A DNA stretch of 64,000 nt from IMG/VR virus record IMGVR_UViG_3300045988_067909, one strand, 5' to 3'. Both the position numbers and the translations under genes were made by a program. Below, piece after piece: positions 4,258 through 63,842 of this stretch. Positions within the stretch are counted from its first letter, which is position 1; each line of letters opens with the position of its first letter. The notes below the pieces were generated by a model. That model was not told the origin of the DNA and made no database searches. It saw nothing but the letters and a program-made list of their open reading frames with translations. Source of the DNA: a virus.

Positions 4258-4273
4258 TTATAAATAAAGACAA

Positions 4274-14248: not shown

Positions 14249-14300
14249 AAGGCTAGAGGAATTTCCTCTAGCCTTAATCTATTTTATTTTTTTTTATTCA
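14249..14300. terminator. bidirectional terminator between convergent genes
   Basis: Hairpin aaggctagaggaatttcctctagcctt flanked by an A-run on one side and a T-run on the other. Convergent CDS ends at 14242 and 14294. Confidence 0.5.
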
Positions 14301-15013
14301 CGACGGGATATCTTCTTACCACTTAAAGTCAATGGTGTTACATTGCCAATATTGATTAAGTTAGTAGATAGATGTGCACCTAGCATATATACGTTAAGTA
14401 AGTTCTTACTCATAGGATCACTAGGGTCATCAGGGATATCATCTTGAGAGATATAACCCATAGTAGAGATAGTATTATACATAGCTTGTTTAGCTTCCAT
14501 GGAATCTGCACGTGCTCTGGATAACTCTTTAATAGTTGCATCCATGCCACTAACTACAAGAGATTCCATTTCTCTATCAGATGTAATACCATTCTTATCA
14601 TGAGAGATAAGCATACCTGTCTTATTATCACGCATAGCTATATTAGTAGAGATAGCGTTCTTTTTTGTCAAGAATTGTTTCATACGTTTTAGATGTAAGT
14701 ACCCAACTAATGCTTCATGAGATGTAGCACCATGACCATTCTCATCTGTATAGATATATGGCATTTCGACTTTCTCTAAGATAGGTACACCCATTACATC
14801 AGCAGCTTTCTCTACTTGGTCCATAGTTGGTTCAATCTCGAATACACGAGTGATAAATCTAAATGGATATTTACCAGATACAAACTTAGTAAACTCTTTA
14901 TCACTCATATCAGAGAATATCTTTTTATAATAGTCAGTAACTTTACCAGATGGATCCATAGCTAGCATTACATCAAATACTAGCTTTTCGGCTTTCTTTC
15001 TTTGTGGTGTCAT
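14294..15013 (-). CDS. hypothetical protein
   Basis: 239-aa ORF. RBS aggagg in ctaatctataggaggaactaaATG (reverse strand). Confidence 0.5.
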   Translation of the reverse strand: MTPQRKKAEKLVFDVMLAMDPSGKVTDYYKKIFSDMSDKEFTKFVSGKYPFRFITRVFEIEPTMDQVEKAADVMGVPILEKVEMPYIYTDENGHGATSHEALVGYLHLKRMKQFLTKKNAISTNIAMRDNKTGMLISHDKNGITSDREMESLVVSGMDATIKELSRARADSMEAKQAMYNTISTMGYISQDDIPDDPSDPMSKNLLNVYMLGAHLSTNLINIGNVTPLTLSGKKISRRE

Positions 15014-18725: not shown

Positions 18726-19991
18726 ATGAAAGCAAAACTTATCGGTATTGGAGCTGCTGGTAATAAAGCAGCTATGCATGCTATTAACCAAGGTGTATTT
18801 GATCGTAAAGATGTTTTACTTTTGAATACAACTCAAAAAGATATGAAAGACGAATTCAACGATATTAATATCGTATTCGGTGATAACCGTGGTGGTTGCG
18901 GTAAAGAACGTGATATGGCTAAAGGATTAGCTATGGAAGCTTTACGTGCAGACCTATTCAAATTAGACTCTTTTCCAGATCCTCAAGATGAAGCTATTAT
19001 CATTGTATCTTCTTCCGAAGGTGGTACTGGTTGCGGTGCTTCTACTATTGTAGCTAAGTACTGTAAACAAGTATTGAAAATGAATGTACACATGTTCGTA
19101 TTCACTGGTTTCGAACAAGATGCTCGTGGTATCCAAAACACTGTAGAATACTTCCAAGAATTATCTGATGAATATACTGTACAAGCTATTAGTAATAAGA
19201 AATTCTTAGATGGTATCCGTAGCAAACAAGATGCTGAACGTGCGGCTAACCAAGAATTCACTCAACGTATGGCAGTTCTTCTTGGTCAAGACTTAGTAGA
19301 ATCTGATCAAAATATTGATGACACAGACTTATATAAATTGTCTACTACACCTGGTTTCATGACTATCGAAAAAGCTAAAGTTACTAGCATTAAGAATACA
19401 GAAGACTTGTATAAAGAACTTCGTAAAATGTTAGACTATAGCAAATCTTTGGAATTCAAGCCTACAGCTAAACGTATTGGTGTAATCTTTGGTCTAGTTC
19501 CTGCGGCTCAAAACATGGACTTGAATACTGATGTATTACGTGAACGTCTTGGTGAACCATATGAATTCTTCACTCATATTCAAGATGCTGAACCTGGTAA
19601 AGAGTTCATTGAATTCATTGCTTCTGGTATTAAAATGCCAATTGATGAAGTTAATAAAGCTTACCAAACTTACTTAGAACGCACTTCTAAAGTTGATAAA
19701 TCTAAAGACTCTTTCTTTGATGAAGCTTCTTCTATGACTATCAATAAAGAAGATGGTATGTTTAACTTTGATAAGACTGGTCCACAAAATATCTCCAAAG
19801 CAGATAAAGATGCATTCTTTGCTAGTTCCAAGCCTGTAGTTAAACCACGTGTAACTGTATCTGCTAAAGATGATTTCTTCAATCAAACTACAGAAAAGGT
19901 TACAGTATCTCCTACAGTTGAAGTTCCAGAAGAACCAGTTAAACCTAAACGTGTAATTATCACTAGCAATGGTATTACAAAAGACTATTAA
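18726..19991 (+). CDS. phuZ: tubulin/FtsZ-family GTPase, phage PhuZ/TubZ-like
   Basis: N-terminal GIGAAGNKAA (G1 GxGxxG box). Tubulin signature-like SSEGGTGCGAS (GGGTGSG). Overall size 421 aa with an extended C-terminus, as in phage tubulins. Confidence 0.8.
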   Translation: MKAKLIGIGAAGNKAAMHAINQGVFDRKDVLLLNTTQKDMKDEFNDINIVFGDNRGGCGKERDMAKGLAMEALRADLFKLDSFPDPQDEAIIIVSSSEGGTGCGASTIVAKYCKQVLKMNVHMFVFTGFEQDARGIQNTVEYFQELSDEYTVQAISNKKFLDGIRSKQDAERAANQEFTQRMAVLLGQDLVESDQNIDDTDLYKLSTTPGFMTIEKAKVTSIKNTEDLYKELRKMLDYSKSLEFKPTAKRIGVIFGLVPAAQNMDLNTDVLRERLGEPYEFFTHIQDAEPGKEFIEFIASGIKMPIDEVNKAYQTYLERTSKVDKSKDSFFDEASSMTINKEDGMFNFDKTGPQNISKADKDAFFASSKPVVKPRVTVSAKDDFFNQTTEKVTVSPTVEVPEEPVKPKRVIITSNGITKDY

Positions 19992-20944: not shown

Positions 20945-21300
20945 ACACAAAAAATAATACATGGGTAGAGAGGATGCCCTACCCATGTATATCTTTATCT
21001 ATACACCATATCTATGATATAGTCGCATGCGCCATAGTGGCACCATATGCTCTATTGGTGTATCTTTATCTGGTAAATGTTCACCAGACTCAGTACCAAC
21101 AGGTATAGATTCAGATGCTAGTCTTCTAGCTTCGAGCTCAGGAATCTGAGCGCAAAGCGAGAGGAGAAACTCTCTGCTCATAGGGGATTCACCTCCTTAT
21201 GACAAGTAGACATAAGTCTACAAGTGTATGGGTAAATTTAGATACGGCTATTGGTACTAGCTGTATCTACCATACACATTTATAGTATACAATCGTAAAA
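20945..21300 (-). repeat. copy 1 of a ~350-bp repeated cassette (promoter, structured leader, 60-aa ORF, terminator)
   Basis: High nucleotide identity to 21305-21715, and in inverted orientation to 47900-48290. Contains terminator catgggtag...ctacccatg and leader hairpins. Confidence 0.6.
20999..21181 (-). CDS. conserved small protein, cassette copy 1 (60 aa)
   Basis: MSREFLLSLCAQIPELEARRLASESIPVGTESGEHLPDKDTPIEHMVPLWRMRLYHRYGV. RBS aaggaggtgaatcccctATG. Paralogues at 21365-21547 and 48031-48228. Confidence 0.55.
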   Translation of the reverse strand: MSREFLLSLCAQIPELEARRLASESIPVGTESGEHLPDKDTPIEHMVPLWRMRLYHRYGV

Positions 21301-21304
21301 CAGT

Positions 21305-21715
21305 TTACATATAAAAAATAATACATGGGTAAGTGGGGATACACCTACCCATGATTATCTTTATCTATACCCCATATTTATGGTATAGTCGCATGCGCCA
21401 TAGTGGCACCATGTGAACTATTGGGGTATCTTTGTCTGGCATCCGTTCACCAGATACAGTACCTACTGGTATGGTTTCGGATGCCAGTCTTCTCGCTTCG
21501 AGCTCAGGGTTCTGAGCACAAAGAGAAAGAAGGACATCTCTTGTCATAGGGATTCACCTCCTTATGACTTATGGGTTATAGTCCCATAAGTGTATGGTTA
21601 TATTTAGATACAGCTACTACTAATAGCTGTATCTACCATACACGTTTATAGTATACAATCGTAAAACAGTTTACATACAGAAACTCCCATATAGGCAATG
21701 CCTATATGGGACTTC
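21305..21715 (-). repeat. copy 2 of the repeated cassette
   Basis: Tandem to copy 1. Same promoter-like TTGTATACTATAAA box, leader hairpins and terminator. One leader hairpin has a different sequence but preserved pairing. Confidence 0.6.
21365..21547 (-). CDS. conserved small protein, cassette copy 2 (60 aa)
   Basis: MTRDVLLSLCAQNPELEARRLASETIPVGTVSGERMPDKDTPIVHMVPLWRMRLYHKYGV. About 80% identical to copy 1. Confidence 0.55.
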   Translation of the reverse strand: MTRDVLLSLCAQNPELEARRLASETIPVGTVSGERMPDKDTPIVHMVPLWRMRLYHKYGV

Positions 21716-35291: not shown

Positions 35292-35573
35292 ATGAAATCA
35301 TTTATCCAAATAAAAGAGAAAATAGAACGATTCCTTGCTACTGTACTAGTTATCCTAGCACCGATTGGTTGTATATTTGCAGGTCTTGCATGGGTATACT
35401 CATATATAGGGTGTACCCGTGCACATAATAGTATAAGCTATATAGCCTACGATATAATAGGTCCTGCAATTTTAGTTACTGGTTTGGTGGCTATGGTAAT
35501 TTGGACACCTCAGGTTATATGGTACATATTGTCGTATTTATTCAAAAGGATTAAGAAAGCATGGAAAAACTAA
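35292..35573 (+). CDS. small membrane protein (2 predicted TM helices)
   Basis: Hydrophobic stretches LATVLVILAPIGCIFAGLAWVY and IIGPAILVTGLVAMVIW. Start coupled to the sbcC stop. Confidence 0.4.
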   Translation: MKSFIQIKEKIERFLATVLVILAPIGCIFAGLAWVYSYIGCTRAHNSISYIAYDIIGPAILVTGLVAMVIWTPQVIWYILSYLFKRIKKAWKN

Positions 35574-43433: not shown

Positions 43434-43844
43434 ATGAAACTTATAAAACGTCAATTCGAAGAAAATGCTTATGTATCCACAGTAGCCATCCCAACTACAG
43501 AGGTGGAGCGCAAAATGATCCAAGCATTAAAGTACGATTTGATTTCTGAGGAGCCAGAAATTTGTAACTGGCACCCAGAATGGTTAGGCGAAAGCCTAGC
43601 CATTGAATATGCTAATGCGCTTGGACATAGTTGGGTTGACTTCTATGGTACTGATGAGTACATGGTAGTAGTTGATCCAGAGGGCACGTATGTTATTACT
43701 GCAACCCCTAGTAATTTAGAAACATTGATTGCAGGTTATCGCCTACTTGGTCGCCATCGTAAGGTGGCAATGATCTTGAAAAAGATCAAGAAGCTTGGTA
43801 TTGAAGACATGGTATCAAACATGACACCAGGCCGTCAAGCATAA
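43434..43844 (+). CDS. hypothetical protein, paralogue of 39347-39805
   Basis: Shares VAIPTTEVER, ALKYD and IAGYRLLGRHRKVAMILKK blocks with the 39347 gene. Confidence 0.5.
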   Translation: MKLIKRQFEENAYVSTVAIPTTEVERKMIQALKYDLISEEPEICNWHPEWLGESLAIEYANALGHSWVDFYGTDEYMVVVDPEGTYVITATPSNLETLIAGYRLLGRHRKVAMILKKIKKLGIEDMVSNMTPGRQA

Positions 43845-43849
43845 AAATA

Positions 43850-43896
43850 TAGGGTAGAGACAATGTCTCTACCCTAATCTTATTTTATTTTTTTAA
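43850..43896. terminator. bidirectional terminator
   Basis: Hairpin tagggtagagacaatgtctctaccctaatc followed by a T-run. Convergent with the minus-strand thyA gene ending at 43893. Confidence 0.5.
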
Positions 43897-44204
43897 ACAG
43901 CAACTACCATAGGGAGTTTACCCATATGGAAGTAGTTATCCACAATTACGCTATCTGGAGTAAAGTCATAGAAGTCTTGTACACTACCATTAATAACCAA
44001 TCTAGGCTCTTGTGTTGGTAGATTACCAGACTCATAACGTTTAATTTGTTCTTGTAAAGCTTCTATATGATTCTCATATATATGCATATTATTTACGATA
44101 TGAGTAAACTTACCAGGTTTAAGTTTACATACATGAGCTATCATATGAACTAGCATAGCGTATTGTGTTGTATTGAACGGGATTCCTAATCCCGTATCCC
44201 CCGA
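43893..44204 (-). CDS. thyA: thymidylate synthase, exon 2 (C-terminal part)
   Basis: SGDTGLGIPFNTTQYAMLVHMIAHVC...VAV parallels E. coli ThyA [26 protein letters not shown]...VAI. Reading frame continuous with exon 1 after intron removal. Confidence 0.8.
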   Translation of the reverse strand, partial: SGDTGLGIPFNTTQYAMLVHMIAHVCKLKPGKFTHIVNNMHIYENHIEALQEQIKRYESGNLPTQEPRLVINGSVQDFYDFTPDSVIVDNYFHMGKLPMVVAV

Positions 44205-44491
44205 CAAAGTGTTCTAGTATGGTCGTTAATCATACTACGTTCTCTTATGAACTGCTATATATTTCTATATAGATCAGACTATATCACGATCCGTCCCTGG
44301 TAGGACCCCAAACGTTTCCACCCACTTAGGTGTACTCTACTCACTTACAGATATACTGTATGCTTTCGATAGTCGTTGAACACAAATCTATTATAGATTC
44401 TTCGTAAATGATTATCGTATAAGTAAATTATACGACGTTCCATTTTTAGTAAGGTTATTCGATGTATATTACTATACAAAGGCGCCCGTTA
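44205..44491 (-). other. group I self-splicing intron (no ORF) interrupting thymidylate synthase
   Basis: The 5' exon ends in U (…CAGCGU) and the intron ends in G (…ACUUUG), as required for group I splicing. Intron RNA contains R-like GUUCAACGACUAUCG (plus coords 44363-44382, reverse complement). S-like GAUAUAGUCUGAUC (44271-44284, reverse complement) pairs with R as GACUA/UAGUC to form P7. The 287 nt are too short for a homing endonuclease. Confidence 0.8.
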
Positions 44492-44980
44492 ACGCTGGAG
44501 GAGTATGCAGTTTAATTTATCTTCTTGAACATCCCATAGTGTCTCATAAGCACATGGTTGTAGTGCCATATCTGGGAGATCTTCTATGTTCCAGAGGGTA
44601 ACTATCATACGTCTGCTATCTGGATCAGTTTTAATAGTATTGATAAGATTGTCTAGTTGATTGTATTTAGCAATCTGATATCCATAGGCTTTGCCTATAG
44701 TACCATCTTCTCTCATCCATTCATCCCATACATGACAACCCATCTTTTGTAGCTCACGTACATCATTGGATTGCATTTGCCAGATCCATAATAGTTCTTT
44801 AAGAGCAGTCTTAGCTGCTACAAACTTAGATGATAAGATAGGGAATTCTTCTTGTAAATCAAACTGCATGATTTGGTGTGGTAACTTATATGTCGGAATA
44901 CCTGTACGGTTATTACTATATGTACCGTGGTCTAAGATATTCTTTACAATATCAATATACTGCTTATCTGCGGTTCTCAT
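44492..44980 (-). CDS. thyA: thymidylate synthase, exon 1 (N-terminal part)
   Basis: [42 protein letters not shown] parallels ThyA [38 protein letters not shown]. Catalytic-Cys context [24 protein letters not shown] matches [24 protein letters not shown]. Confidence 0.85.
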
Positions 44981-45060
44981 TTATATACCTCCTGTGGAAT
45001 TAAAAAAAATATATTTATATTAGGGTGTGAACTCTATATTAAATTACAATGTGGTGATAT

Positions 45061-45140
45061 CGTAAAACTTGATTATTTCAGTTATATACTATAATGGTAA
45101 TACAATGGTTATATATTTATTTAGTTAATTAATCAAGGAG
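45061..45140 (+). promoter_or_regulatory. conserved promoter-like repeat copy
   Basis: cgtaaaacttgattatttcagttatatactataatggtaatacaatggttatatat. Confidence 0.45.
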
Positions 45141-45150
45141 GATATTAACC

Positions 45151-45546
45151 ATGGCACTTTTACACGATTTAGAAAATTTAAGTGTGTTATCTTATAATGA
45201 AATTGTTGAAGGTATTAACAATTTCAAGCATACAATGAAAACATACTTAGATGAAACACAAGACATTGTAGACTTATTACTTTTCTTAAGTGATAGTATT
45301 GGGATGAGTATCCCGGTATTTTCAGATGAAGAAAAAGTAAAAATGTTTACCTTGGGTTTTGCATATTCCACGGCTAATATCGCATTATCTATTTTGGCAA
45401 AAAACAGTGCTATCACATTTGAAGAGCATTGTAATCTTGCTGATTTAGTCTTCGATTATCGCAGTGAGTTTGCAGAACTTGTTGCAACAAAAATTATTGA
45501 AGCATTTGAACGCAAATGTGAAGAGAATAAGAATAATGTAGCATAA
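45151..45546 (+). CDS. hypothetical protein (promoter-cassette gene)
   Basis: 131-aa ORF with RBS atcaaggaggatattaaccATG. Followed by hairpin aggggtggtttatccacccct at 45553-45573 and a T-run. Confidence 0.5.
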   Translation: MALLHDLENLSVLSYNEIVEGINNFKHTMKTYLDETQDIVDLLLFLSDSIGMSIPVFSDEEKVKMFTLGFAYSTANIALSILAKNSAITFEEHCNLADLVFDYRSEFAELVATKIIEAFERKCEENKNNVA

Positions 45547-45666
45547 GTTTATAGGGGTGGTTTATCCACCCCTAATACTTAATTATTTTTTTTTGTAATC
45601 AGGATTTGAATTATATAATATAATTACGATACAGTGGCTATATTATATTTTAGAAAGGAGATTTAG

Positions 45667-45837
45667 AATGAGACGAAAGTATAGTTTTGATAATTTTATG
45701 GATATACTTCCATTAATTATCACAATACTAATAGTAACTGTAGTATGGGTTTACATGGACCTAGATTATGACAGACTATTTCATATGATAGCTTGTGTAA
45801 CTGCTGGGTTTATAGTAAGTATAGTATTAGATAGGTA
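45667..45837 (+). CDS. small membrane protein 1 of a 7-gene cluster (56 aa, below the ORF-track cutoff)
   Basis: RBS gaaaggagatttagaATG. Hydrophobic core ILPLIITILIVTVVWVY and IACVTAGFIVSIVL. Confidence 0.35.
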
Positions 45838-45867
45838 ATTTATTTAAAAGAAGGGATGATTAAAAGA

Positions 45868-45992
45868 ATGGAAACTTTATTTAATGGTATTAGATGGTTT
45901 GTAGATGCAAACTATATGATTATTGGTATGCTAGTTATAGCTACTATGATTGCTTTTGTAGAGACTACGAAAGTTGGTGATGATAATGAGTA
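45868..45992 (+). CDS. small membrane protein 2 (41 aa)
   Basis: RBS aaagaagggatgattaaaagaATG. Hydrophobic segment MIIGMLVIATMIAFV. Confidence 0.3.
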
Positions 45993-46552
45993 AGATTCAA
46001 TACATTCTTCTTACATTACTATCTGGTGGGTCTGGTACATATATTATGCTACATAGCGATCAAGACCCTTATTGGCTAAGCAGAACCATTATGTGTTTCA
46101 CATTGGTCGTACTATTCTGCTTTGCTTGGTATCACAATAGATACGTTGATAATATTCGTCTTATACGTGTGACTGCTGATATGCTGGTGAACCATAGCAA
46201 CGAAACACCAGAAACGGTTAAAGACAGAATTGAACAAGCGAAAACAGATGAAACATTATCAGACGTTAAACGTGCAGAAGTTATTAATGGTCTTGAACAA
46301 GTTTTGGAGTTGTTCAAACTATTCAATACTATGCCAACTATGGAAGAGATTACTAAAAGAAGTAATAATAATTGGTATATGGTTATAATCTTAACATTAA
46401 TTCTACTTATTAATGTATCATGGTTAAATGATACGTTCGCTATGATTAGTACATTAATATTAATGGTAGCATACATTGTGCTCCAGGTTCGAAGTATTAA
46501 ATTAGTAAGAGGTAAACCTGATGGAAAAGGAAAAACGTCTCTTTGGAAGTAA
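45986..46552 (+). CDS. membrane protein 3
   Basis: Start ATG at 45986 overlapping the previous stop (ATGAGTAAG). TM segments at the N-terminus (ILLTLLSGGSGTYIML, FTLVVLFCFAWY) and C-terminus (MVIILTLILLINVSW, MISTLILMVAYIVL). Confidence 0.45.
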   Translation: MSKIQYILLTLLSGGSGTYIMLHSDQDPYWLSRTIMCFTLVVLFCFAWYHNRYVDNIRLIRVTADMLVNHSNETPETVKDRIEQAKTDETLSDVKRAEVINGLEQVLELFKLFNTMPTMEEITKRSNNNWYMVIILTLILLINVSWLNDTFAMISTLILMVAYIVLQVRSIKLVRGKPDGKGKTSLWK

Positions 46553-46934
46553 AATCTTCCTAGAAATTTTCTCTTCAGAGCTTATTACATTGATATGCTC
46601 TAATATATTAGTATCTATATTAGTGTATAAAGAAATATATGCATTGGCTTTTATTAATATAGTAATAGGCGGGTATATCATTTCTGTACAAAGTGGAGAT
46701 ATTTCTTCCAACAAGTTCATTATTAACCATTTAGAAGATGGGCTTGTTAAATTTAATGAGCTTACTGGTGGTAAGATTAAAACCAATCTTCTTAATAATA
46801 CTAGTAAGCGTATTGCTATCGAAGAAGCATTAAAGAATGCTGTCAATGGTAGTGGAGAGGTATTTGTAGTTGCTTTATTGGTTACTATAGTGGATATTAT
46901 AGTTTTAGTGTTTAAAGGGTTAGGGGCGTTCTAA
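46521..46934 (+). CDS. membrane protein 4
   Basis: Hydrophobic segments LITLICSNILVSILVY, LAFINIVIGGYIISV, VFVVALLVTIVDIIVLVF. Confidence 0.4.
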   Translation: MEKEKRLFGSKIFLEIFSSELITLICSNILVSILVYKEIYALAFINIVIGGYIISVQSGDISSNKFIINHLEDGLVKFNELTGGKIKTNLLNNTSKRIAIEEALKNAVNGSGEVFVVALLVTIVDIIVLVFKGLGAF

Positions 46935-46935
46935 A

Positions 46936-47097
46936 ATGCTAACCATTTTGATGTATATAATCTTACCAGTGTTAATGGCTTTTACTTTTATGCTAGCGTT
47001 GTATAAAATACTTCATAAGAAATATGAGTATATATTTATTATGGTAATGCTAGCTGGGTTGTTCCACTGGTGGATTACATACCACGGAGGTATTTAA
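46936..47097 (+). CDS. small membrane protein 5 (53 aa, below the ORF-track cutoff)
   Basis: MLTILMYIILPVLMAFTFMLALY...IFIMVMLAGLFHWW. Start is 1 nt after the previous stop. Confidence 0.3.
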   Translation: MLTILMYIILPVLMAFTFMLALYKILHKKYEYIFIMVMLAGLFHWWITYHGGI

Positions 47098-47164
47098 TGC
47101 TAAGCTGAGTATAGTCATTGACTATACTCAGTTTCTTTATGTTTATTATAGTGAGAGGTGTATA

Positions 47165-47497
47165 ATGAAACTTATAATGTGTCTTATAGCTTTCCATGCT
47201 ATAATGACAGTTGGTGCTGATTGGGCTATAAACTATCAGCAAGACTTATATAGAATTCTATTAGTATATGTCCCAGGCATATTAGGTTCTATAGGGATAA
47301 TACTATATATGAATATTAGGCTTAGATTAGATGAAATAGCTGATCATATAGATAAGAGCAAGAAAGCTAGAATAGACTATGCTATGGTTACTAAGACTTG
47401 TCATAACTATGGAAGAAAGCTTATGGTATTTCTAGTAGCAATATATATTCTATGGGTGATTGAGATGATTGTAGTTAATATTATAGGGATGGTATAA
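47165..47497 (+). CDS. membrane protein 6
   Basis: RBS gtgagaggtgtataATG. TM segments LIMCLIAFHAIMTVGA, GILGSIGIILYM, LMVFLVAIYILWVIEMIVV. Confidence 0.45.
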   Translation: MKLIMCLIAFHAIMTVGADWAINYQQDLYRILLVYVPGILGSIGIILYMNIRLRLDEIADHIDKSKKARIDYAMVTKTCHNYGRKLMVFLVAIYILWVIEMIVVNIIGMV

Positions 47498-47498
47498 G

Positions 47499-47858
47499 AT
47501 GGAAAGAATAGCACAAGAGATAATTAAGAGAACTGGATATGTTATTGGTATAGTAGTTATACTACTGCTGATAGTGTTAAATGTAAAAACATTCCCATCA
47601 TTTAGGGAATGGTATGCATTTATATTTATGCCAGGTGCTATATTCTTAATACTGATGACTTATAACTTTATAACTTATAGTATGTCTAAATACTCAATGA
47701 ATGGTAATACTGAACAAGAGATATTACGTAATAGAGCTAAGTCTAAGCAGACTTGTATACGTTTCTCTCGTGGTATTACTGTATATGGTGTTGGTATAGT
47801 CTTATGGTATATGCTAGCCTTCATAGGGTCTATTATAAACAATCTACCACAATTCTAA
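47499..47858 (+). CDS. membrane protein 7
   Basis: Coupled start (TAAGATG). TM segments YVIGIVVILLLIVL, FIFMPGAIFLILMTY, GVGIVLWYMLAFIGSII. Confidence 0.45.
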   Translation: MERIAQEIIKRTGYVIGIVVILLLIVLNVKTFPSFREWYAFIFMPGAIFLILMTYNFITYSMSKYSMNGNTEQEILRNRAKSKQTCIRFSRGITVYGVGIVLWYMLAFIGSIINNLPQF

Positions 47859-47870
47859 GACAAAAGATAT

Positions 47871-47910
47871 CCCCATATAGGCATTGCCTATATGGGGTAT
47901 ATTATTTTTT
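47871..47910 (+). terminator. rho-independent terminator, TATAGGCATTGCCTATA hairpin family
   Basis: Hairpin ccccatataggcattgcctatatgggg followed by tatattatttttt. Confidence 0.55.
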
Positions 47911-48290
47911 ATAAGTAAACTGTTTTATGATTGCATACTATAATTGTGTATGGTAGATACAGCTAGTAACGTTAGCTGTATCTAAATATAACCATACACT
48001 TGTAGACATAAGTCTACGGGTCGAAAGGAGGTGACTCCTATGACTAGAGAACGAGAATCTATTCTCGCTATCTGTGCTCAGATTCCTGAGCTCGAAGCTA
48101 GAAGGCTAGCTTCTGAAAGCATCCCGGTTGGGACTGAATCTGGTGAAAGATTACCAGACAAAGATACTCCAATCGTCCACATGGTACCGCCATGGAGGAT
48201 GCGTCTATACCACAAATATGGGGTATAGATAAGGAGTATACATGGGTAAGGATATAGAACATTCTTACCCATGTATTATTTTTTATACTT
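47900..48290 (+). repeat. copy 3 (inverted orientation) of the repeated small-gene cassette
   Basis: Promoter-like gattgcatactataattgtgtatgg, leader hairpins agatacagctagtaacgttagctgtatct and gtagacataagtctac, ORF, and terminator catgggtaagg...cttacccatg. Matches the 20945-21715 cassettes in reverse complement. Confidence 0.6.
48031..48228 (+). CDS. conserved small protein, cassette copy 3 (65 aa)
   Basis: MTPMTRERESILAICAQIPELEARRLASESIPVGTESGERLPDKDTPIVHMVPPWRMRLYHKYGV. RBS aaaggaggtgactcctATG. Confidence 0.55.
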   Translation: MTPMTRERESILAICAQIPELEARRLASESIPVGTESGERLPDKDTPIVHMVPPWRMRLYHKYGV

Positions 48291-48312
48291 ATTTGTTAGT
48301 GATTTAGTAAAT

Positions 48313-48390
48313 CGTAAAACTTAGTATTTTCAGTTGTATAATATAGTGGTAATAGAATGGTTGTATTATTTAGTATTAATTGAAAAGGAG
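48313..48390 (+). promoter_or_regulatory. conserved promoter-like repeat copy (diverged)
   Basis: cgtaaaacttagtattttcagttgtataatatagtggtaatagaatggttgtattatt. Confidence 0.4.
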
Positions 48391-48399
48391 ATATTAACC

Positions 48400-48687
48400 A
48401 TGATTACTCTATTAAAAAAGTATTATTTAGACCTTACTTTTGTATGCCTAGTTGTATTTGGCTTTGTAGTTGCTACAAAGCTAGTATATTTAACAGGTAT
48501 AGACTGGTGGAATTGGGAGATTCTCCCAGTTTCCGCTAGTCCAGCTCTAAGAGAGACTGCTGAAAACTACATGACAATTGCCCAATTAGAGGTGATTGGT
48601 ATGTATGTTTTCATGGGGTTACTTGCCCCATTCGTTGCGACTATGTATGTAGCATATCGCAACGATCCTGAACTTCATCAAAAGTAA
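48400..48687 (+). CDS. small membrane protein (promoter-cassette gene)
   Basis: RBS aaaggagatattaaccATG at 48400 (the ORF track begins upstream at 48334). TM segments LTFVCLVVFGFVVA and VIGMYVFMGLLAPFVATMYV. Confidence 0.45.
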   Translation: MITLLKKYYLDLTFVCLVVFGFVVATKLVYLTGIDWWNWEILPVSASPALRETAENYMTIAQLEVIGMYVFMGLLAPFVATMYVAYRNDPELHQK

Positions 48688-48693
48688 TAAGTT

Positions 48694-48735
48694 GGGATAC
48701 AGGTATTAAGCCTGTATCCCTTATCTTATTTTATT
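48694..48735. terminator. bidirectional terminator
   Basis: Hairpin gggatacaggtattaagcctgtatccc followed by a T-run. The convergent minus-strand gene ends at 48740. Confidence 0.5.
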
Positions 48736-48739
48736 TTTT

Positions 48740-49768
48740 TTAGAATCCATCATCGAATGATGCGGAACTACCGTTTCTAGCCTGAGAGATTAATGGTGCT
48801 TCTTCTATACGACCATCATTACCAATAACCACTAATGGGAAGTCCATATTAGTATTGGAGTTTCTAGCTGTACCAGTAGCGAAGTTAATACGCATAGCTT
48901 CAAGCAAGAAGTCGTCTGGTAGACTTACATTTTCCACATATTGTTTTGTAGCTAAGTTCATCATCCTAAAGTACTTAGCATCTGTACGTCTATCATATAC
49001 TACAACGACTTTAGTATTAGGGTTAGATTCCATAATCATACGATTTTGCTCTGGAGTGAACTCTTGAGATGGGGATAATTGAGTTCTATCAGATGGAGGA
49101 ATCAAATCAAAGCTTTGTGCACGCTGAGCGATAAAGGATGGGAAGTCCATACCCTGGATAGCTTGTGGTGGAACAAAACCAGTGGATTCCAATTGTTGTC
49201 TTGGAGCATCCAATAAGTTTTTGTATAGACCCATGATAGCTGCATTATCATCACCAGCATCAATCTTAAGATCTTTAACACGAGACAATTCCAATTTAGC
49301 TGCTGTAGTGATATTATCATTGATTGCTTTAATAGCACTTAGCTTAGTACTAGTGATAGTAGAGATTACACTAGCCATATCAGTCATATATTGATATTTA
49401 CCTTTAAGACGAGATGACATACGTAGTTGATTAAACTCAGTTTTAAGTTCATCTTGTAATACACCTAGCTGAGATACAGTCTCTCTAAGCATATCATTAG
49501 TTTCATCATACATCTCAGCAATAGGTACATTAGTAGTTAAGATAGCTGCTTTTTCTTGTCTAACTTCACCATCTTCACCATTCAAAGGTTTAACCTTACG
49601 TGGACGACCACGTCGTTTAGTTGGAACAACTAACTCTTTAGGTGGCTCTTCTAATTTGATACTATTATTATCTCTCATACCACCAAATAACTTTTTCTTA
49701 GGCGGAGTAACTTCAACTTTGAGTTCTTTATTGTCCACATCTGTGGCTGTAGTAAACATACTTTCCAT
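48740..49768 (-). CDS. hypothetical protein with AT-hook-like RRGRPRK motif
   Basis: 342-aa ORF on the minus strand with RBS aaagaaaggaaataaaaatATG on the reverse strand. Motif PTKRRGRPRKVKP. Confidence 0.45.
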   Translation of the reverse strand: MESMFTTATDVDNKELKVEVTPPKKKLFGGMRDNNSIKLEEPPKELVVPTKRRGRPRKVKPLNGEDGEVRQEKAAILTTNVPIAEMYDETNDMLRETVSQLGVLQDELKTEFNQLRMSSRLKGKYQYMTDMASVISTITSTKLSAIKAINDNITTAAKLELSRVKDLKIDAGDDNAAIMGLYKNLLDAPRQQLESTGFVPPQAIQGMDFPSFIAQRAQSFDLIPPSDRTQLSPSQEFTPEQNRMIMESNPNTKVVVVYDRRTDAKYFRMMNLATKQYVENVSLPDDFLLEAMRINFATGTARNSNTNMDFPLVVIGNDGRIEEAPLISQARNGSSASFDDGF

Positions 49769-49852
49769 ATTTTTATTTCCTTTCTTTATAAGGCTTCATA
49801 TTGGTTTTTATATAGACGTTAACTTCGTAATAACTAACAGGAGGAATTATCT

Positions 49853-50275
49853 ATGAAAAGTCAACTAATCTATGATATAAACAAGAAGTTTATTGTAACC
49901 ATTCTAAAGAATATAAAAAACAACCCTAATGATATTGTCTTTGAATTTAAAAACTTCTATCTTTCTATTGATGTAAATAAAGAAAGAGAACAAGCTTCTT
50001 TTGTAATAACTGATAAAGATGGTAAAGAGATTATATCATTCTTTAAGCACTACATGAAGTATACAGCATATAGCAACTGTATGCCAATAGAAGACTTCTT
50101 AAGTGACCATACTACTAATGAAGCATTAAAGGATTTTATATTTGATGGTGGTAAAGCTATCAAATATCTATACGGTGGTGGTCCTGGCTATAGGATTATA
50201 ACCAGAGAGTTATACTTGCTATTAAATGAGCATGCTAAAGCGATAACCAAAGATAATTTCAGTTATATACTATAA
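49853..50275 (+). CDS. hypothetical protein
   Basis: RBS aacaggaggaattatctATG. The 3' end of the ORF contains a copy of the promoter-like core ttcagttatatactataatggtgatac. Confidence 0.45.
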   Translation: MKSQLIYDINKKFIVTILKNIKNNPNDIVFEFKNFYLSIDVNKEREQASFVITDKDGKEIISFFKHYMKYTAYSNCMPIEDFLSDHTTNEALKDFIFDGGKAIKYLYGGGPGYRIITRELYLLLNEHAKAITKDNFSYIL

Positions 50276-50545
50276 TGGTGATACTGTGGTAGTTATTATC
50301 TTATCTAACACACCCCACAGGTGCATAAACTCTAATACCCAACTATACTCCCTTTGGGTACTCTCCTTTAAAATAAATAATATAACCATTGAAAATGAAC
50401 GGAAAAATTATTTATGCACCTATCTATAATATTCCCTATACAATAATGAATATAATCACCCCTCTACCACAGTATCACATTGAACTTCGGCAAGACACTC
50501 CCTTTCGGTGTCTTGCCACCCCTTATTTATTTTTTGCCTATTTAG
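50255..50545 (+). ncRNA. candidate structured non-coding RNA (promoter-like box to terminator, no RBS-bearing ORF)
   Basis: Promoter-like core at 50255-50285. 16-nt long-range inverted repeat ggtgatactgtggtag (50278-50293) / ctaccacagtatcac (50461-50477). Strong terminal hairpin ggcaagacactccctttcggtgtcttgcc with a T-run (50491-50540). The only internal ORF (about 54 aa) lacks an RBS. Confidence 0.25.
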
Positions 50546-50613
50546 CTTGATTTCAACGGGAATAGTAAGTTTTTACAACTCTGACCACATACCATTAATA
50601 GGAGGAAACAATC

Positions 50614-52491
50614 ATGCTTCATATATACGACCAATATTTTGATGGGTCAGACTTAACGTTACTGAACTCATTCTATATAAAATCTAAGAAAGACAAAGCT
50701 GGATGGACATCTCCATATATAGTTATGGTAGCCAGAGACAACTCTACTGGTGAGAAAGTTAGATGTGAGATAGAGAATCCAGAATATATATACTTTGTGG
50801 CTAAAGACCCACAATCAATAACTCATCATTATGATTACATTGAACGAGATAAGGTTATACCAGTTAAGTGTAATAATGGTGAGCTTCTTAAATCTATTGC
50901 AGACAATACAGGTAATATAGAATACTTCTATAATAATATCAAGTCTAGAGACTTTGGTGCTAATACTAAGTTGCATACTTGTAATACAGTATTCTTATCT
51001 GATATGGAATTATCCGATCATTATAGATTTTGGTTTAGTCGGAGATTCCCTAATGAAATTAAAGTTCCACCAACTAAAGCATATTTCGATATTGAAGTTG
51101 ATATCTCAGAGATTGCTGGGGATTTCCCAGAACCAGGTGAAGCACCTGTATCTGCAGTAACTTATATCTTTGGTAATAATATCTATACGTATATTCTTAG
51201 AGATCATCGTAATGTACTTGTAGAAGAATTTGAATTAAAGTATAGAAAAGGTGGATTAGATGGTGAATTGTTTAGTCTTATTCGTTCTACAGTTGGTGGT
51301 AATGATAGGGTTAAACACTTTGGTTTAGAGAATATGAAATGGCATGCTTTATTTTTTGATGATGAAAAGGAGCTATTACATTCTTTATTCGATAAAGTTA
51401 ATGAAGATAAACCTGATTTCATGTTAGCATGGAACATGGCGTTCGACTTGCCATATATCATTGCTCGTATAGAAGACCAATTTGGTGAGAAAGCATCTGA
51501 CTATATTTGTCATCCAGACTTCTATACTAAGGAATGCTATTACTATGTAGATGAACGTGCAGGTCAAGCATTAGCTGAACGTGGTGACTATGCACAGATA
51601 TCTTCATATACAGTATACTTAGACCAAATGATTCAGTTTGCTTCTAGACGTAAAGGACAAGCTGCTTATCAATCTAATAAGTTGAATGATATCGGTCAAC
51701 AAGTTGCTGGTGTAGCTAAGTTAGACTATCATCATATTACTAGAGATATTGGTGAGTTACCATTTAAAGACTTTAAGACATATATATTCTATAACGTAGT
51801 CGACGTTATAGTACAGGTATGTATTGAAAAAGAAACTGGTGATATTGATTACGTATACAATACTACAGTTGATACAAATACTAGATATGCTAAGGCTCAT
51901 AGACAAACTGTATATCTTAATAATCAACGTGTTAAGATATATTACAATGATGGGTTCGTTCATGGTAATAATATCAATAAGTTTAAAGAGAAACCTAAAG
52001 AGAAGTTCCCTGGTGCATTCGTAGCAGATCCTAATCTTATTAGTGATTTTGCTAAGATTAAGATTAATGACCAACCAGTCTTGCTATTCGATAACTCAGT
52101 AGACTTTGACTTTAGTTCTCTATATCCTAGTATTATTCGTGAGTTCAATCTATCAGCACCAACTCAGATTGGTATGATTAAGTTTAATAATGAAGCACTA
52201 AGTGGTGCTAAGTTCATAGAAGATATAGCTACAGATGATAGTATCACATTCTGTCATAAGTGGTTTAATATGCCTAATATAGAAGAGATGGTACATATCA
52301 TCAAGATAAACGCACCAAGAATTCAAACTAAGAAACCATTCATGGCTTATACTGATGGTATACTTGGTGAAGTTGAACCTGATACATATACAACTTTAAA
52401 CATGTTTAGACATTCTGATACAGAAACACAATCTATGTTTAAACCTAAAGAATTATCCAAAGGAGAGATTGAAGATGGCGAAAGAGTATAA
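50614..52491 (+). CDS. family B DNA polymerase, N-terminal portion (3'-5' exonuclease domain plus polymerase motif A)
   Basis: RBS taataggaggaaacaatcATG. Exo I AYFDIEVD. Exo II LAWNMAFDLPYIIAR. Exo III-like IFYNVVDVIVQ. Pol motif A DFSSLYPSII. The ORF ends before motifs B (KxxxNSxYG) and C (YGDTDS) appear. Confidence 0.75.
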   Translation: MLHIYDQYFDGSDLTLLNSFYIKSKKDKAGWTSPYIVMVARDNSTGEKVRCEIENPEYIYFVAKDPQSITHHYDYIERDKVIPVKCNNGELLKSIADNTGNIEYFYNNIKSRDFGANTKLHTCNTVFLSDMELSDHYRFWFSRRFPNEIKVPPTKAYFDIEVDISEIAGDFPEPGEAPVSAVTYIFGNNIYTYILRDHRNVLVEEFELKYRKGGLDGELFSLIRSTVGGNDRVKHFGLENMKWHALFFDDEKELLHSLFDKVNEDKPDFMLAWNMAFDLPYIIARIEDQFGEKASDYICHPDFYTKECYYYVDERAGQALAERGDYAQISSYTVYLDQMIQFASRRKGQAAYQSNKLNDIGQQVAGVAKLDYHHITRDIGELPFKDFKTYIFYNVVDVIVQVCIEKETGDIDYVYNTTVDTNTRYAKAHRQTVYLNNQRVKIYYNDGFVHGNNINKFKEKPKEKFPGAFVADPNLISDFAKIKINDQPVLLFDNSVDFDFSSLYPSIIREFNLSAPTQIGMIKFNNEALSGAKFIEDIATDDSITFCHKWFNMPNIEEMVHIIKINAPRIQTKKPFMAYTDGILGEVEPDTYTTLNMFRHSDTETQSMFKPKELSKGEIEDGERV

Positions 52492-61064: not shown

Positions 61065-63842
61065 TTAGACACCTGTGCCTACTGGAGTTTCAGTGTGTTC
61101 TTCAGTTGTACCAGGAACTACTGGTGTAGCTTCATGGTTTTCTTCAGTATGTCCTTCTTCGGAAGTATGTGTTTCTTCGGATGTACCAGGAACTACCGGA
61201 GTAGCTTCATGAGTTTCTTCTGTATGACCAGCTGTTTCAGTATGAGTTTCACCTGCAACAGGAGCTGCTGGAGATTCTGTGTGTTCTTCAGTATGACCAG
61301 CTTCAGTATGAGTTTCTTCGGAAGTGTGAGCTTCTTCACCTGTAGCTACTGCAGGAGATTCAGTATGTGTTTCTTCTGTAGTACCAGGAACTACTGGAGT
61401 TTCAGTGTGTTCTTCAGTATGACCTTCTTCAGAAGTATGAGTTTCTTCACTAGTACCAGGAACTACTGGAGTTTCAGTGTGCTCTTCCGTGGAAGGAACT
61501 GCTGGAGTAGCTTCATGATGTTCTTCTGTAGTGCCAGGAACTTCAGTATGAGTTTCTTCGGTATGTCCTTCTTCAGAAGTATGAGTTTCTTCACTAGTAC
61601 CAGGAACAGCAGGAGTTACTTCATGGTGTTCTTCATTACCTACTGGTGTTTCTGTGTGTTCTTCAGTTGTACCAGGAACTACTGGAGTTTCTGTATGAGT
61701 TTCTTCAGTATGTCCTTCTTCAGAAGTGTGAGCTTCTTCACCTGTTGTAGGTACAGCTGGAGATTCTGTGTGTTCTTCTGTATTGCCAGGAACTTCAGTG
61801 TGAGTTTCTTCTGTATGTCCTTCTTCAGAAGTATGTGTTTCTTCTGTTGTGCCAGGTACTACTGGTGTAGCTTCATGGTTTTCTTCTGTATGTCCTTCGG
61901 AAGTGTGAGATTCTTCACCTGTTGTAGGTACAGCTGGTGTTTCAGTGTGTTCTTCTGTTGTGCCAGGAACTTCTGTATGTGTTTCTTCACTTGTACCAGG
62001 TACCGCAGGTGTAGTTTCATGATGTTCTTCATCACCTACTGGAGCCACAGGAGTTTCAGTGTGTTCTTCTGTAGTACCAGGTGTATGAGTTTCACCTGTA
62101 GAAGGAGTTGCTGGTGTAGGTGGTAATACAGGGTTAGTATCATCAACTGCAGCGTGAGATTCTTCACCTGGTGTAGGTACAACAGGAGTAGCTTCATGAT
62201 GTTCTTCAGTTGTACCAGGAACTACTGGAGTAGCTTCATGAGTTTCTTCTGTGTGTCCTTCTTCAGAAGTATGTGTTTCCTCTGTAGTACCAGGAACTAC
62301 TGGTGCAACAGGTGTTTCAGTATGAGTTTCACCTGTGGAAGGAACTACTGGAGTTTCAGTGTGAGTTTCTTCAGTTGTACCAGGAACTTCTGTATGAGTT
62401 TCTTCTGTTTTAGGTGGAACTACTGGTTCTACTGGTGTAATAGGTGCTACAGGAGTTTCTGTATTACCGCCAGTAGTGGTACCCTCAGTAGGAGTAGTTT
62501 CTTCTTTTCCTGGAGTTACAGTATGTGTAGTGTCATCTGTACCAGGGTGATTAGGGGTTGTATTTTCTTTTTTATCTTCAGGTTTATTAGTTACAATATC
62601 GTCTTTTGTTTCGACTTGGTCTAATACGCCATCTTTTTTAACAATCACGTTATCTTCCTCTTCTTTCTCAATAGTCTCTTTAACCCAAACTTCTTTAGGT
62701 GGTAATACAAGTCCTTCAAGAACCCAATTACCTTTAGTGATTAAATCATTAGCTAGTCTAGCTACGTCTTTAGGACATTCTGTATTTTTAGGGAAAGCAA
62801 TATGTTTATCTTTTACATCAGGAGATAAAGCATTAATGATATTAGTTACAGTTTTATCTGTAATCTTACTAGAATCAGCTAACCAAAGATCTGTTTTAAG
62901 ACCTTTAGCTGGAGTTAATTCAATATCTTTAAGCTCTTTACATCCTGCAAATAACACATCAGCAGTCTCTAACTTAGTTACATCCAATTTTACAGACTCA
63001 AGTTTCTCACATTGATAGAAAATACCATCAGCAAAACGAAGGTCTGTAGATCCACTTAGATCTACAGAAGTGAGTTCTTTGTTATTATAAAACATATCAT
63101 TTGCTGAAGTGAGTTTACCGATGTTTTCTAATTTAACATTAGCAAGTTTACGGCACTCTCTAAACATTGAGTTTGCAGATACTAGATTAGTAGCATCTAA
63201 TGTACCAGCATCAGCTAATTCATAGCATAATGCAAACATATTGTCAGCTACAATAGTATTCTTAGTATCCAAAGGACGAGGTAACAAGTCTAGCTCTTTA
63301 CTAATGATAGGGAACTTACGATCCATGAAGTTGTAAGCATCATTAGGTACTTTGATAGCTACACCATCATTTAAGAAATCGTAATTTGCTTTAGAGAATT
63401 GTAATCTACGAAGTTTGGTAATATCAATAGATACAACTCTAGAATCATAGTCCATAGAGCAATCAAACTGGATAACTACAGTCGGATCTTCCATGTCCAT
63501 TTTGTTTAGGTTATAAGTAAATGGTGCACGTGTATTGTGCTTTAAGAATTCAAAACATTTAACACGGCCACTTAATTTAACCAATCTGCCATCTTTCACA
63601 TAGTCTATATCCCATAAAGTCGGAGACCCTGCCTCAAGATAGCAAGCATAGCAATGCTCAGGTGTCGCATATTGAAATCGAACAAGCAGTGCTTGTTTGA
63701 TCTCATGTGTTACATCAATGAGTTCAACCCGAGGACATTGGTATCCTCGGGTGTACTCAGCATCATATACTTTTACAAAAGGCATATCTCTTGTAGGATC
63801 GACTTCTAGGAACTTAGGACCATTTTTAAAATAGTCTGCCAT
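61065..63842 (-). CDS. large protein with N-terminal BspA-type leucine-rich-repeat region and C-terminal ~450-aa Thr/Glu/His/Pro-rich tandem-repeat domain
   Basis: RBS taaggaggctttaATG at 63842 (minus strand). LRR-like periodic FxxCxxL motifs (NMFALCYEL, SMFRECRKL, DMFYNNKEL, GIFYQCEKL, VLFAGCKEL). C-terminus made of dozens of imperfect repeats such as GTTEETHTE(T/V)P(A/V)VP and SEEGHTEETHTE. Confidence 0.6.
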   Translation of the reverse strand: MADYFKNGPKFLEVDPTRDMPFVKVYDAEYTRGYQCPRVELIDVTHEIKQALLVRFQYATPEHCYACYLEAGSPTLWDIDYVKDGRLVKLSGRVKCFEFLKHNTRAPFTYNLNKMDMEDPTVVIQFDCSMDYDSRVVSIDITKLRRLQFSKANYDFLNDGVAIKVPNDAYNFMDRKFPIISKELDLLPRPLDTKNTIVADNMFALCYELADAGTLDATNLVSANSMFRECRKLANVKLENIGKLTSANDMFYNNKELTSVDLSGSTDLRFADGIFYQCEKLESVKLDVTKLETADVLFAGCKELKDIELTPAKGLKTDLWLADSSKITDKTVTNIINALSPDVKDKHIAFPKNTECPKDVARLANDLITKGNWVLEGLVLPPKEVWVKETIEKEEEDNVIVKKDGVLDQVETKDDIVTNKPEDKKENTTPNHPGTDDTTHTVTPGKEETTPTEGTTTGGNTETPVAPITPVEPVVPPKTEETHTEVPGTTEETHTETPVVPSTGETHTETPVAPVVPGTTEETHTSEEGHTEETHEATPVVPGTTEEHHEATPVVPTPGEESHAAVDDTNPVLPPTPATPSTGETHTPGTTEEHTETPVAPVGDEEHHETTPAVPGTSEETHTEVPGTTEEHTETPAVPTTGEESHTSEGHTEENHEATPVVPGTTEETHTSEEGHTEETHTEVPGNTEEHTESPAVPTTGEEAHTSEEGHTEETHTETPVVPGTTEEHTETPVGNEEHHEVTPAVPGTSEETHTSEEGHTEETHTEVPGTTEEHHEATPAVPSTEEHTETPVVPGTSEETHTSEEGHTEEHTETPVVPGTTEETHTESPAVATGEEAHTSEETHTEAGHTEEHTESPAAPVAGETHTETAGHTEETHEATPVVPGTSEETHTSEEGHTEENHEATPVVPGTTEEHTETPVGTGV
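61100..62560. repeat. coding tandem repeat array (period about 45-60 nt) inside the 61065-63842 gene
   Basis: DNA-level imperfect repeats of gtttcttc(a/g)g(a/t)agtatg(a/t)gtttcttc...accaggaactactgg. Plus-strand ORFs 61095-62126 and 62154-62624 are Cys/Phe/Ser-rich artefacts of this repeat. Confidence 0.6.

Follow-up and report, generated by a model that had tools for sequence, protein, structure and literature searches.

Seven consecutive genes, each encoding a small integral membrane protein, occupy positions 45668–47858 (+ strand) of a 64,000-nucleotide stretch (hereafter the window) of the virus record IMGVR_UViG_3300045988_067909 in IMG/VR. It is firmly established that the seven genes (g1 to g7) are distinct and form a bounded operon, and that this cassette is accessory, fast-evolving and specific to one lineage of jumbo phages. 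Its role is a more tentative matter: at a probability of about 0.4, the cassette is an early accessory module that serves superinfection exclusion or envelope takeover by acting on the membrane, and not lysis machinery. A preliminary description of the window had placed an operon of seven small membrane proteins here and had listed three possible functions for it without ranking them. The genes lie where they had been located, all of their products are hydrophobic and the reading frames are under selection in related phages.

Organization of the Cassette and Membrane Character of its Products

Two related clades carry the cassette, that of the window and a sister clade (relatives L015–L021). 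The genes and the signals that bound them are listed below (aa, amino acids; TM, transmembrane helices; SD, Shine-Dalgarno site).

45554–45594, + strand: terminator of the preceding gene, GGGGTGG-TTTAT-CCACCCC followed by T9; -17.1 kcal/mol, z -3.6; conserved in both clades
45600–45652, + strand: promoter-like box, diverged copy, with core TTATATAATATAATTACGATA at 45611–45631; recognized through repeat families D7 and D17, alignment and motif scan
45668–45838, + strand: g1, 56 aa, 2 TM; basic N-terminus MRRK, acidic loop DLDYD; SD AAAGGAG 7 nt upstream
45868–45993, + strand: g2, 41 aa, 1 TM, acidic C-terminal tail
45986–46552, + strand: g3, 188 aa; 2 TM, helical soluble domain of ~80 aa, 2 TM, basic tail RGKPDGKGKTSLWK
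46521–46934, + strand: g4, 137 aa; 2 TM, conserved loop of ~50 aa (KFNELTGGK.KTNLLNNTSKR.AIE), C-terminal TM
46936–47097, + strand: g5, 53 aa, 2 TM; invariant C-terminus FHWWITYHGGI
47102–47134, + strand: internal terminator-like hairpin in the g5/g6 gap, T-rich tail; -19.9 kcal/mol, z -4.9
47165–47497, + strand: g6, 110 aa, 3 TM; invariant first loop MTVGADWAINYQQD
47499–47858, + strand: g7, 119 aa, 3 TM; basic central loop (+7/-2), invariant C-terminus NLPQF
47871–47897, with T-run to 47910, + strand: intrinsic terminator ending the unit; 12-bp stem with 7 G-C pairs; -24.1 kcal/mol, z -5.4
48400–48687, + strand: g8, 95 aa, 2 TM; next transcription unit, behind a standard promoter-like box at 48323–48361

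The genes are packed as tightly as the preliminary description had claimed: g2 and g3 overlap by 8 nt (ATGAGTAA) and g3 and g4 by 32 nt, g4/g5 and g6/g7 are separated by 1 nt, and the remaining spacers measure 29 nt (g1/g2) and 67 nt (g5/g6). Because the packing is so tight, most of the genes are probably translated in a coupled way. SD sites are present for most of the seven, including AAGAGGT ahead of g4. The size range given earlier, 41 to 192 aa, holds at its lower end (g2); at the upper end, g3 measures 188 aa from the start chosen by the gene caller and reaches 192 aa only if a TTG at 45974, four codons upstream, is used. An alternative ATG at 45856 would extend g2 to 45 aa, and relatives L005, L007 and L018 retain only the start of the 41-aa form.

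The grand average of hydropathy (GRAVY) of the seven proteins ranges from +0.15 to +1.29, whereas nearly all of the other 57 open reading frames (ORFs) fall between -0.8 and -0.02, and a run of at least seven flagged hydrophobic ORFs has a permutation probability of 2.4e-4. Beyond g1–g7, the only markedly hydrophobic products of the window are g8, which belongs to the hypervariable region of the cassette and lies outside the seven-gene unit, and that of a 93-aa ORF at 35292–35573 (+ strand; 2 TM, GRAVY 0.80) located directly after an SbcC-like gene. Hydropathy predicts two, one, four, three, two, three and three helices for g1 to g7, respectively, in agreement with the one to four proposed before. 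The charge pattern obeys the positive-inside rule, with basic N-termini and central loops on one side and acidic short loops and tails on the other. Among the C-terminal tails only that of g3 is clearly basic (+5/-1), and g1, g4, g5, g6 and g7 stop inside or just after a transmembrane helix. AlphaFold models of g3 (mean predicted local distance difference test score, pLDDT, 73.7; helices 3–23, 29–70, 75–87, 93–115, 119–144 and 149–174) and g7 (pLDDT 81.1; helices 2–26, 35–65 and 72–114) are all-helical, and their helices coincide with those predicted from hydropathy.

Evidence for Genuine Genes

Short hydrophobic ORFs may arise by chance in AT- or T-rich DNA, and the composition of this region (32% G+C, with a T-rich + strand and an AT skew of -0.03 to -0.07) favors Phe, Leu and Ile codons. 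Such an artefact has a negligible probability here and is rejected on the basis of open frames, in-frame versus off-frame substitution rates and conservation in relatives. All seven frames are open, with no in-frame stops, in every relative where they are found, down to 36% identity (g2 was not matched in L020 and L021 by tblastn at E<=1e-3). In the close comparison, made with relatives L005 and L007 at ~90% nucleotide identity, the ratio of nonsynonymous to synonymous substitution rates (dN/dS) is 0.06–0.32 in frame for g1, g3, g4, g5 and g6 (g1, 0.19–0.32; g3, 0.12–0.13; g4, 0.06–0.07; g5, 0–0.13; g6, 0.27), g4 being the most constrained member of the cassette. The shifted frames are rich in stops, and 15 of their 17 computable dN/dS values exceed 0.6, 12 of them exceeding 1. 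The close comparison gives higher values for g2 (0.75) and g7 (0.49), each from few substitutions; both genes are still open and alignable in the sister clade, where the dN/dS of g7 is ~0.3. Independent gene calls on public contigs agree with the frames of all the genes except g5 (53 aa), which was left uncalled and was taken from the ORF list. The SD sites and the conserved protein motifs point in the same direction.

Evolution of the Cassette

Gene order is the same in the two lineages that carry the cassette, and all relatives with a contig spanning the region keep it in full. The proteins themselves have diverged far more than those encoded by the flanking core genes, as shown by the following identities to the sister clade.

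Flanking core genes (thyA, 342-aa protein, DNA polymerase, virion protein, tail tube): 90–98%
g1: 76–82%
g2: 51%
g3: 36–51%, the most divergent member of the seven
g4: 72–74%
g5: 72–77%
g6: 68–75%
g7: 58–61%
g8: 28–40%

Over all relatives, identities span 71–96% for g1 and 51–95% for g2. The remaining small genes behind copies of the box in this neighborhood vary to the same extent or are wholly replaced. Between the sister clades the synonymous rate (dS) is 0.65–1.5 for the cassette versus 0.15–0.5 for core genes, and dN/dS is 0.08–0.39 versus 0.06–0.15; the raised values suggest old alleles exchanged by recombination together with weaker constraint and not clear positive selection.

Certain loops and termini are invariant while the membrane helices drift: MTVGADWAINYQQD in g6, KFNELTGGK.KTNLLNNTSKR in g4, NGNT..(E/D)ILRNR and NLPQF in g7, and FHWWITYHGGI in g5. 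Invariant segments amid drifting helices point to specific contacts.

Gene content also changes. An extra gene for a 47-aa, two-helix protein lies between g1 and g2 in L005, L007 and the sister clade; most likely the window lineage lost it and the cassette ancestrally comprised eight genes. A more distant clade (342-aa neighbor ~48% identical; contigs of 235–239 kb) keeps the genes that flank the cassette and has unrelated, mostly soluble genes at its position. The ORFs are conserved in related phages, with conservation stopping at a genus-level group; this and the presence of predicted helices in all seven proteins are the two points on which the preliminary description depended. The loss of the 47-aa gene, the g5/g6 hairpin and the membrane gene g8 of the next unit were absent from it.

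Between the terminator of the cassette and g8 there is a variable slot (47920–48300). In the window it holds a G+C-richer ORF of 62 aa (48040–48228) behind a diverged box, and in L005 and L018 it holds ORFs of 68–70 aa, where tblastn with the 62-aa product gave no match. A search of the slot (47920–48300) with Rfam returned no match.

Transcription Signals

The box ahead of g1 had been described as a diverged promoter-like element. It is a diverged copy of a repeat and is almost invariant across both clades while the adjacent coding DNA diverges; its action as a promoter is proposed by analogy. Standard copies are about 45 nt long and consist of CGTAAAACT, 8–10 nt, CAGTTATATACTATAATGGTAATA, 2 nt and ATGGTTATAT. 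Eight close, near-identical copies and four diverged ones occur in the window.

Close copies, all + strand: 13785, 38585, 39273, 42795, 43358, 45071, 48323, 50252
Diverged copies: 39861, 45600, 47930, 59435

Seven of the eight close copies lie ~45 nt ahead of the SD-ATG of a small gene to which no function has been assigned, and a scan of the window found no box ahead of structural, polymerase or topoisomerase genes. The eighth (50252–50290) is followed by ~320 nt devoid of ORFs, up to the start of the DNA polymerase gene at 50614; this ORF-less stretch (50252–50613) may serve as a long leader or encode a non-coding RNA. The more distant clade has a different variant of the box.

Reading these elements as sigma-70-type promoters was rejected, as they show no conserved -35 element at 16–18 nt. 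Sites matching the sigma-70 consensus are no more frequent than in shuffled sequence, and one such site, GTGAGA-16-TATAAT at 47151–47178, cannot serve g6 since it overlaps the g6 start codon. The box is probably a phage-specific promoter class for small accessory genes, expressed early, by analogy with the early promoters read by the virion RNA polymerase of AR9 and phiKZ-like phages, which are long, AT-rich and highly conserved (PMC5312081). The likeness extends to the repetition of the motif before small or early genes and to the multisubunit RNA polymerase, the beta-like proteins of this phage sharing ~30% identity with their AR9 and S6 counterparts. The box, known as a sequence motif alone, differs in sequence (CGTAAAACT...TTATATACTATAATGGTAATA..ATGGTTATAT) from the AR9 early promoter, the consensus of which is AAATATATATTAT-N6-G (PMC5312081).

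The upstream boundary of the unit is set by the terminator at 45554–45594 and the downstream one by the hairpin at 47871–47897, which is as strong as had been claimed. The latter belongs to a 7-copy hairpin family (D10) and has the characters of an intrinsic (rho-independent) terminator: a G+C-rich hairpin, a T-run and a structure kept in evolution. Compensatory stem changes occur in L005, L012, L013 and L016 (CCCCAT/ATGGGG to CCCAGT/ACTGGG; GGC/GCC to GAC/GTC or GTC/GAC).

The internal hairpin divides g1–g5 from g6–g7. The two clades have the same core sequence here, CTGAGTATAGTCAwTGACTATACTCAG, which contains the palindrome common to the terminator family of the phage. No box follows this hairpin, and g6 and g7 must therefore be reached by read-through; the hairpin may be a partial terminator, an attenuator or an mRNA-stabilizing element, and may set the ratio between the two halves of the unit. 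Rfam searches over the window, and more sensitively over 43800–50700, gave no match in the cassette.

A single palindromic core, (A/G)TATAG-N-CAwTG-N-CTATA(T/C), recurs in the terminator hairpins of the window at 4265, 13727, 17845, 21676, 47102, 47862, 55434 and 59989, whose stems show compensatory variation at their top and base. This conservation of sequence beyond structure may reflect recognition by a protein or by the phage polymerase.

Homology and Structure Searches

Scans of the seven proteins, g8, the 62-aa ORF and the upstream gene against Pfam, PHROGs, PADLOC and NCBIfam returned only noise, which agrees with the earlier statement that the seven contain no recognizable catalytic motif. 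The best Pfam/PHROG matches of the seven have E >= 0.0027, far below the cut-offs, and no holin family is among them; named superinfection-exclusion families (T4 Imm/Sp) were likewise without a match in Pfam, PHROG, NCBIfam or PADLOC. Searches of nucleotide and protein collections found nothing beyond the phage group: tblastn of g3, g4 and g7 against 50,697 phage records gave nothing at E <= 1; word-indexed searches of 5.8 billion proteins (g3, g3 profile and g7 profile) recovered only the same phage group, in which the g3 and g7 families were seen on contigs of ~254–268 kb; and an exhaustive phmmer search with g4 against 1.84 billion representatives found no match beyond its own cluster. Pattern scans with the g4 profile led to the same two clades in IMG/VR and, among 185,579 species genomes, to one 2.9-kb contig of a Solobacterium bin.

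At the level of structure, Foldseek comparisons of the g3 model with the Protein Data Bank (PDB) and BFVD and of the g7 model with PDB yielded nothing better than E 0.36, the matches being generic helical bundles. No similarity to transporters or anchors was detected in the sequences, nor by Foldseek in the g3 and g7 models. A tandem array of paralogues was considered and rejected, since hhalign comparisons of the g3, g4, g6 and g7 profiles gave probabilities of at most 1.5%. The best pair in an all-against-all BLASTP, g6/g7, shows 22% identity over 74 aa with an E of 0.005 in a 9-sequence database without composition correction. The seven proteins represent new and distinct families, with no paralogy detected among them, although large phages are already known to carry clusters of small orphan membrane genes.

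The Phage and its Probable Host

The window is an exact match to part of ENA contig ERZ783382 NODE_1 (260,470 bp) and has a G+C content of about 32–33%. Its source is an uncultivated jumbo phage of ~260 kb, distantly allied to the AR9/PBS1/S6 group. This placement follows from RNA polymerase matches of only ~30% identity, the best being to jumbo phages of Staphylococcus (SA1, S6, PALS_2), Bacillus (AR9, PBS1) and Listeria, and from the lack of any match of the window DNA to GenBank phages by megablast. Enzymes encoded in the window include topoisomerase II subunits, an NAD-dependent ligase, an SbcC-like nuclease, a B-family DNA polymerase, multisubunit RNA polymerase beta-like proteins, a UvsX/RecA-like recombinase, dihydrofolate reductase, dUTPase and a split thymidylate synthase. 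There are also tail tube, tail sheath and virion proteins and a tubulin/FtsZ-like protein.

The phage is common in metagenomes, one of its proteins being indexed in 1,336 blocks. Many IMG/VR contigs of the group bear identifiers of human-microbiome type, and by these identifiers the lineage looks human-associated. The host is probably monoderm, given that Staphylococcus, Bacillus and Listeria are the hosts of the phages nearest to this one in RNA polymerase and that the 2.9-kb contig with a cassette fragment (L073, CALISH010000027.1) was binned in a metagenome-assembled genome of an "uncultured Solobacterium sp."; the bin is a weak hint as to the host and agrees with a member of the Bacillota.

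The tubulin/FtsZ-family protein (421 aa, 18726–19991, + strand; Pfam PF00091, E 6e-10; PHROG "tubulin PhuZ") is encoded in a phage nearest to AR9-like phages and not to Chimalliviridae. No chimallin was seen within the window.

Possible Functions of the Cassette

On the reading that the cassette acts on the membrane as an early accessory module, the box-class promoter would drive it early in infection and, as the early accessory class of the box implies, its products would soon insert in the cytoplasmic membrane of the host. Their basic N-termini and loops would face the cytoplasm and acidic or invariant short loops would face outward, and the products may assemble into one or two hetero-oligomers. 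They would alter the envelope to the benefit of the phage, most likely by superinfection exclusion (blocking entry of a competitor genome) or by takeover of the envelope or of division. Of the three functions listed in the preliminary description, exclusion fits best, together with envelope takeover, because the cassette is hypervariable, changing in gene content, lineage-restricted and early-class in appearance. Among the activities of small membrane proteins from lytic phages, it is also the one with the best precedent.

The precedent comes from phage T4, where Imm and Sp, small membrane proteins of a lytic phage, block DNA entry (PMC11436027). Like the cassette products, these are small membrane proteins, located in the inner membrane in the case of T4, and are accessory and lineage-restricted, with an action on the envelope that was shown for T4 (PMC11436027) and is proposed here. 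They differ in being two unlinked single genes as opposed to seven or eight coupled ones, and have no sequence or family relationship to the cassette. Genes 37–60 of SPO1, one of the large phages of Bacillota, offer another comparison: they are very small early host-takeover genes that lie behind repeated strong promoters and end at terminators. This module, read by the host polymerase, encodes mostly soluble proteins, and some of its products are membrane proteins acting on the envelope or on division, such as gp56, a membrane-bound division inhibitor. The cassette resembles it in its small clustered genes, repeated promoters (promoter-like here) and terminators; the two are not homologous, however, and the cassette products are all membrane proteins.

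Several observations weigh against exclusion or envelope takeover by an early module. The box before g1, a sequence motif only, is the most diverged copy and is devoid of the upstream CGTAAAACT element present in standard copies; putative early-type RNA polymerase and replication genes of the window have no box, making the label "early" uncertain. Known exclusion systems consist of one or two genes, not of seven or eight coupled ones. The invariant loops of g4, g6 and g7 suit a structural complex as well as an arms race, and the elevated dS points to recombinational exchange of old alleles and not to positive selection. In addition, the lysis genes of the phage were not located in the part of the genome inspected (~84 of 260 kb).

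Among the rivals, the least unlikely is a multi-subunit membrane machine for the phage's own cycle, either an anchor or organizer of replication, tubulin or a compartment, or a channel or transporter; membrane remodeling, as listed in the preliminary description, is possible in this form. Fixed gene order, with translational coupling suggestive of a fixed stoichiometry, would suit such a machine, as would loops of g4, g6 and g7 that are invariant across clades, the presence of seven unrelated families and not duplicated variants, and the full gene order kept in every relative covering the region together with the g3 and g7 families on the ~254–268 kb contigs. The phage encodes a tubulin/PhuZ-like protein, and early phage proteins that associate with a lipid vesicle are known from Chimalliviridae (PMC13282480; bioRxiv 10.1101/2024.03.24.586471). 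A core function is nevertheless disfavored by the next clade, which keeps the flanking genes but not the cassette at its position, by divergence much faster than that of core genes and by the dispensability of one member, the 47-aa gene missing in the window lineage; the absence of a chimallin from the window and of transporter or anchor similarity counts against it as well. The more specific proposal that the seven (ancestrally eight) proteins form an early phage-built membrane complex, as a component of a compartment or as an anchor for cytoskeleton or replication, in a monoderm-infecting, tubulin-encoding jumbo phage is a long shot. A counter-defence or host-toxic module, which would neutralize membrane-acting defence effectors or depolarize or arrest the host, is improbable: a hypervariable, one-lineage, probably early cassette with other fast-evolving small genes under the same box as neighbors recalls known anti-defence islands, but the proteins resemble no PADLOC model and none of the known anti-defence proteins, which are mostly soluble.

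A role in lysis also appears unlikely. The proposal would be that holin(s) and antiholins or regulators that time lysis are encoded apart from the endolysin in the manner of T4, in which the lysis genes t, rI and rIII are scattered; lysis genes can thus sit away from the lysin. Holin/antiholin sets (lambda S105/S107, T4 T/RI/RIII and Gram-positive families) share with the cassette products their size class, one to three transmembrane helices and charged termini. In particular, g1 (56 aa, 2 TM, both ends predicted inside) is laid out like class II holins, the C-terminal tail of g3 is strongly basic, the diversity of holins is too great for missing hidden Markov model (HMM) matches to exclude them, and the ~84 kb inspected yielded no lysis genes of the phage. 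Unlike those sets, the cassette has no holin HMM match (none of the seven matches a Pfam, PHROG or NCBIfam holin family), no dual-start motif and no lysin nearby: the 64-kb window and the 10 kb flanking it on each side yielded no endolysin-type domain, which bears out the earlier view that this is not a simple holin-endolysin cassette. A PHROG "hydrolase" match in the window was traced to an RNA polymerase beta fragment (14294–15013) and is not a lysin. Seven to eight coupled genes far exceed any known lysis cassette, and the promoter class is common to small accessory genes and not to virion genes. Both the sequences and the likely monoderm host argue against spanins, which had been part of the same suggestion. 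The seven proteins contain no L-[ASTVI]-[GAS]-C lipobox, no type-II signal and no periplasmic coiled-coil protein, and their only N-terminal Cys residues (C6 of g6 and C26 of g4) are not conserved in the sister clade. The holin/antiholin suggestion is thereby weakened and its spanin part is unlikely to hold.

Other Features of the Window

The thymidylate synthase gene (43893–44980, - strand) is split by an ORF-less group I intron at 44255–44501 (Rfam RF00028, 52.4 bits, E 2e-11), which a whole-window scan at gathering thresholds had overlooked; in relative L007 a GIY-YIG/NUMOD3 homing endonuclease gene lies in the corresponding gap. The dUTPase gene is intact in the window (8473–8916), whereas in strain L071 (17976–19318) it is broken by an HNH endonuclease gene.

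A protein of 925 aa (61065–63842, - strand) combines ~20 imperfect 39-nt (13-aa) repeats with a BspA-type leucine-rich repeat domain (LRR_5) and may be a surface-binding or fibre protein; the complement of the 39-nt repeats encodes a Thr/Pro/Val/Glu-rich peptide. Positions 20978–21698 hold two tandem copies of a ~320-nt segment, 84–85% identical and 366 nt apart, in the gap between a gene ending at 20942 and one starting at 21786.

Significance

Jumbo phages carry many small uncharacterized genes, the role of which is a recognized open question (PMC13282480). The cassette offers a clean case: a membrane-only transcription unit with defined boundaries, with its order kept in a prevalent lineage and evolving several-fold faster than the core. 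At present it represents a well-delimited candidate for experiments and not the discovery of a function. Should it prove to be a membrane complex with a structural role, it would inform the question of how early infection is organized in jumbo phages outside the Chimalliviridae; if the complex were built early, it would parallel, in a Gram-positive setting, the vesicle-associated early proteins of that group and be made from entirely new families. If the cassette instead serves superinfection exclusion or envelope takeover, it would be an unusually complex system of its kind, with seven to eight coupled subunits in place of one or two, and would add seven new protein families.

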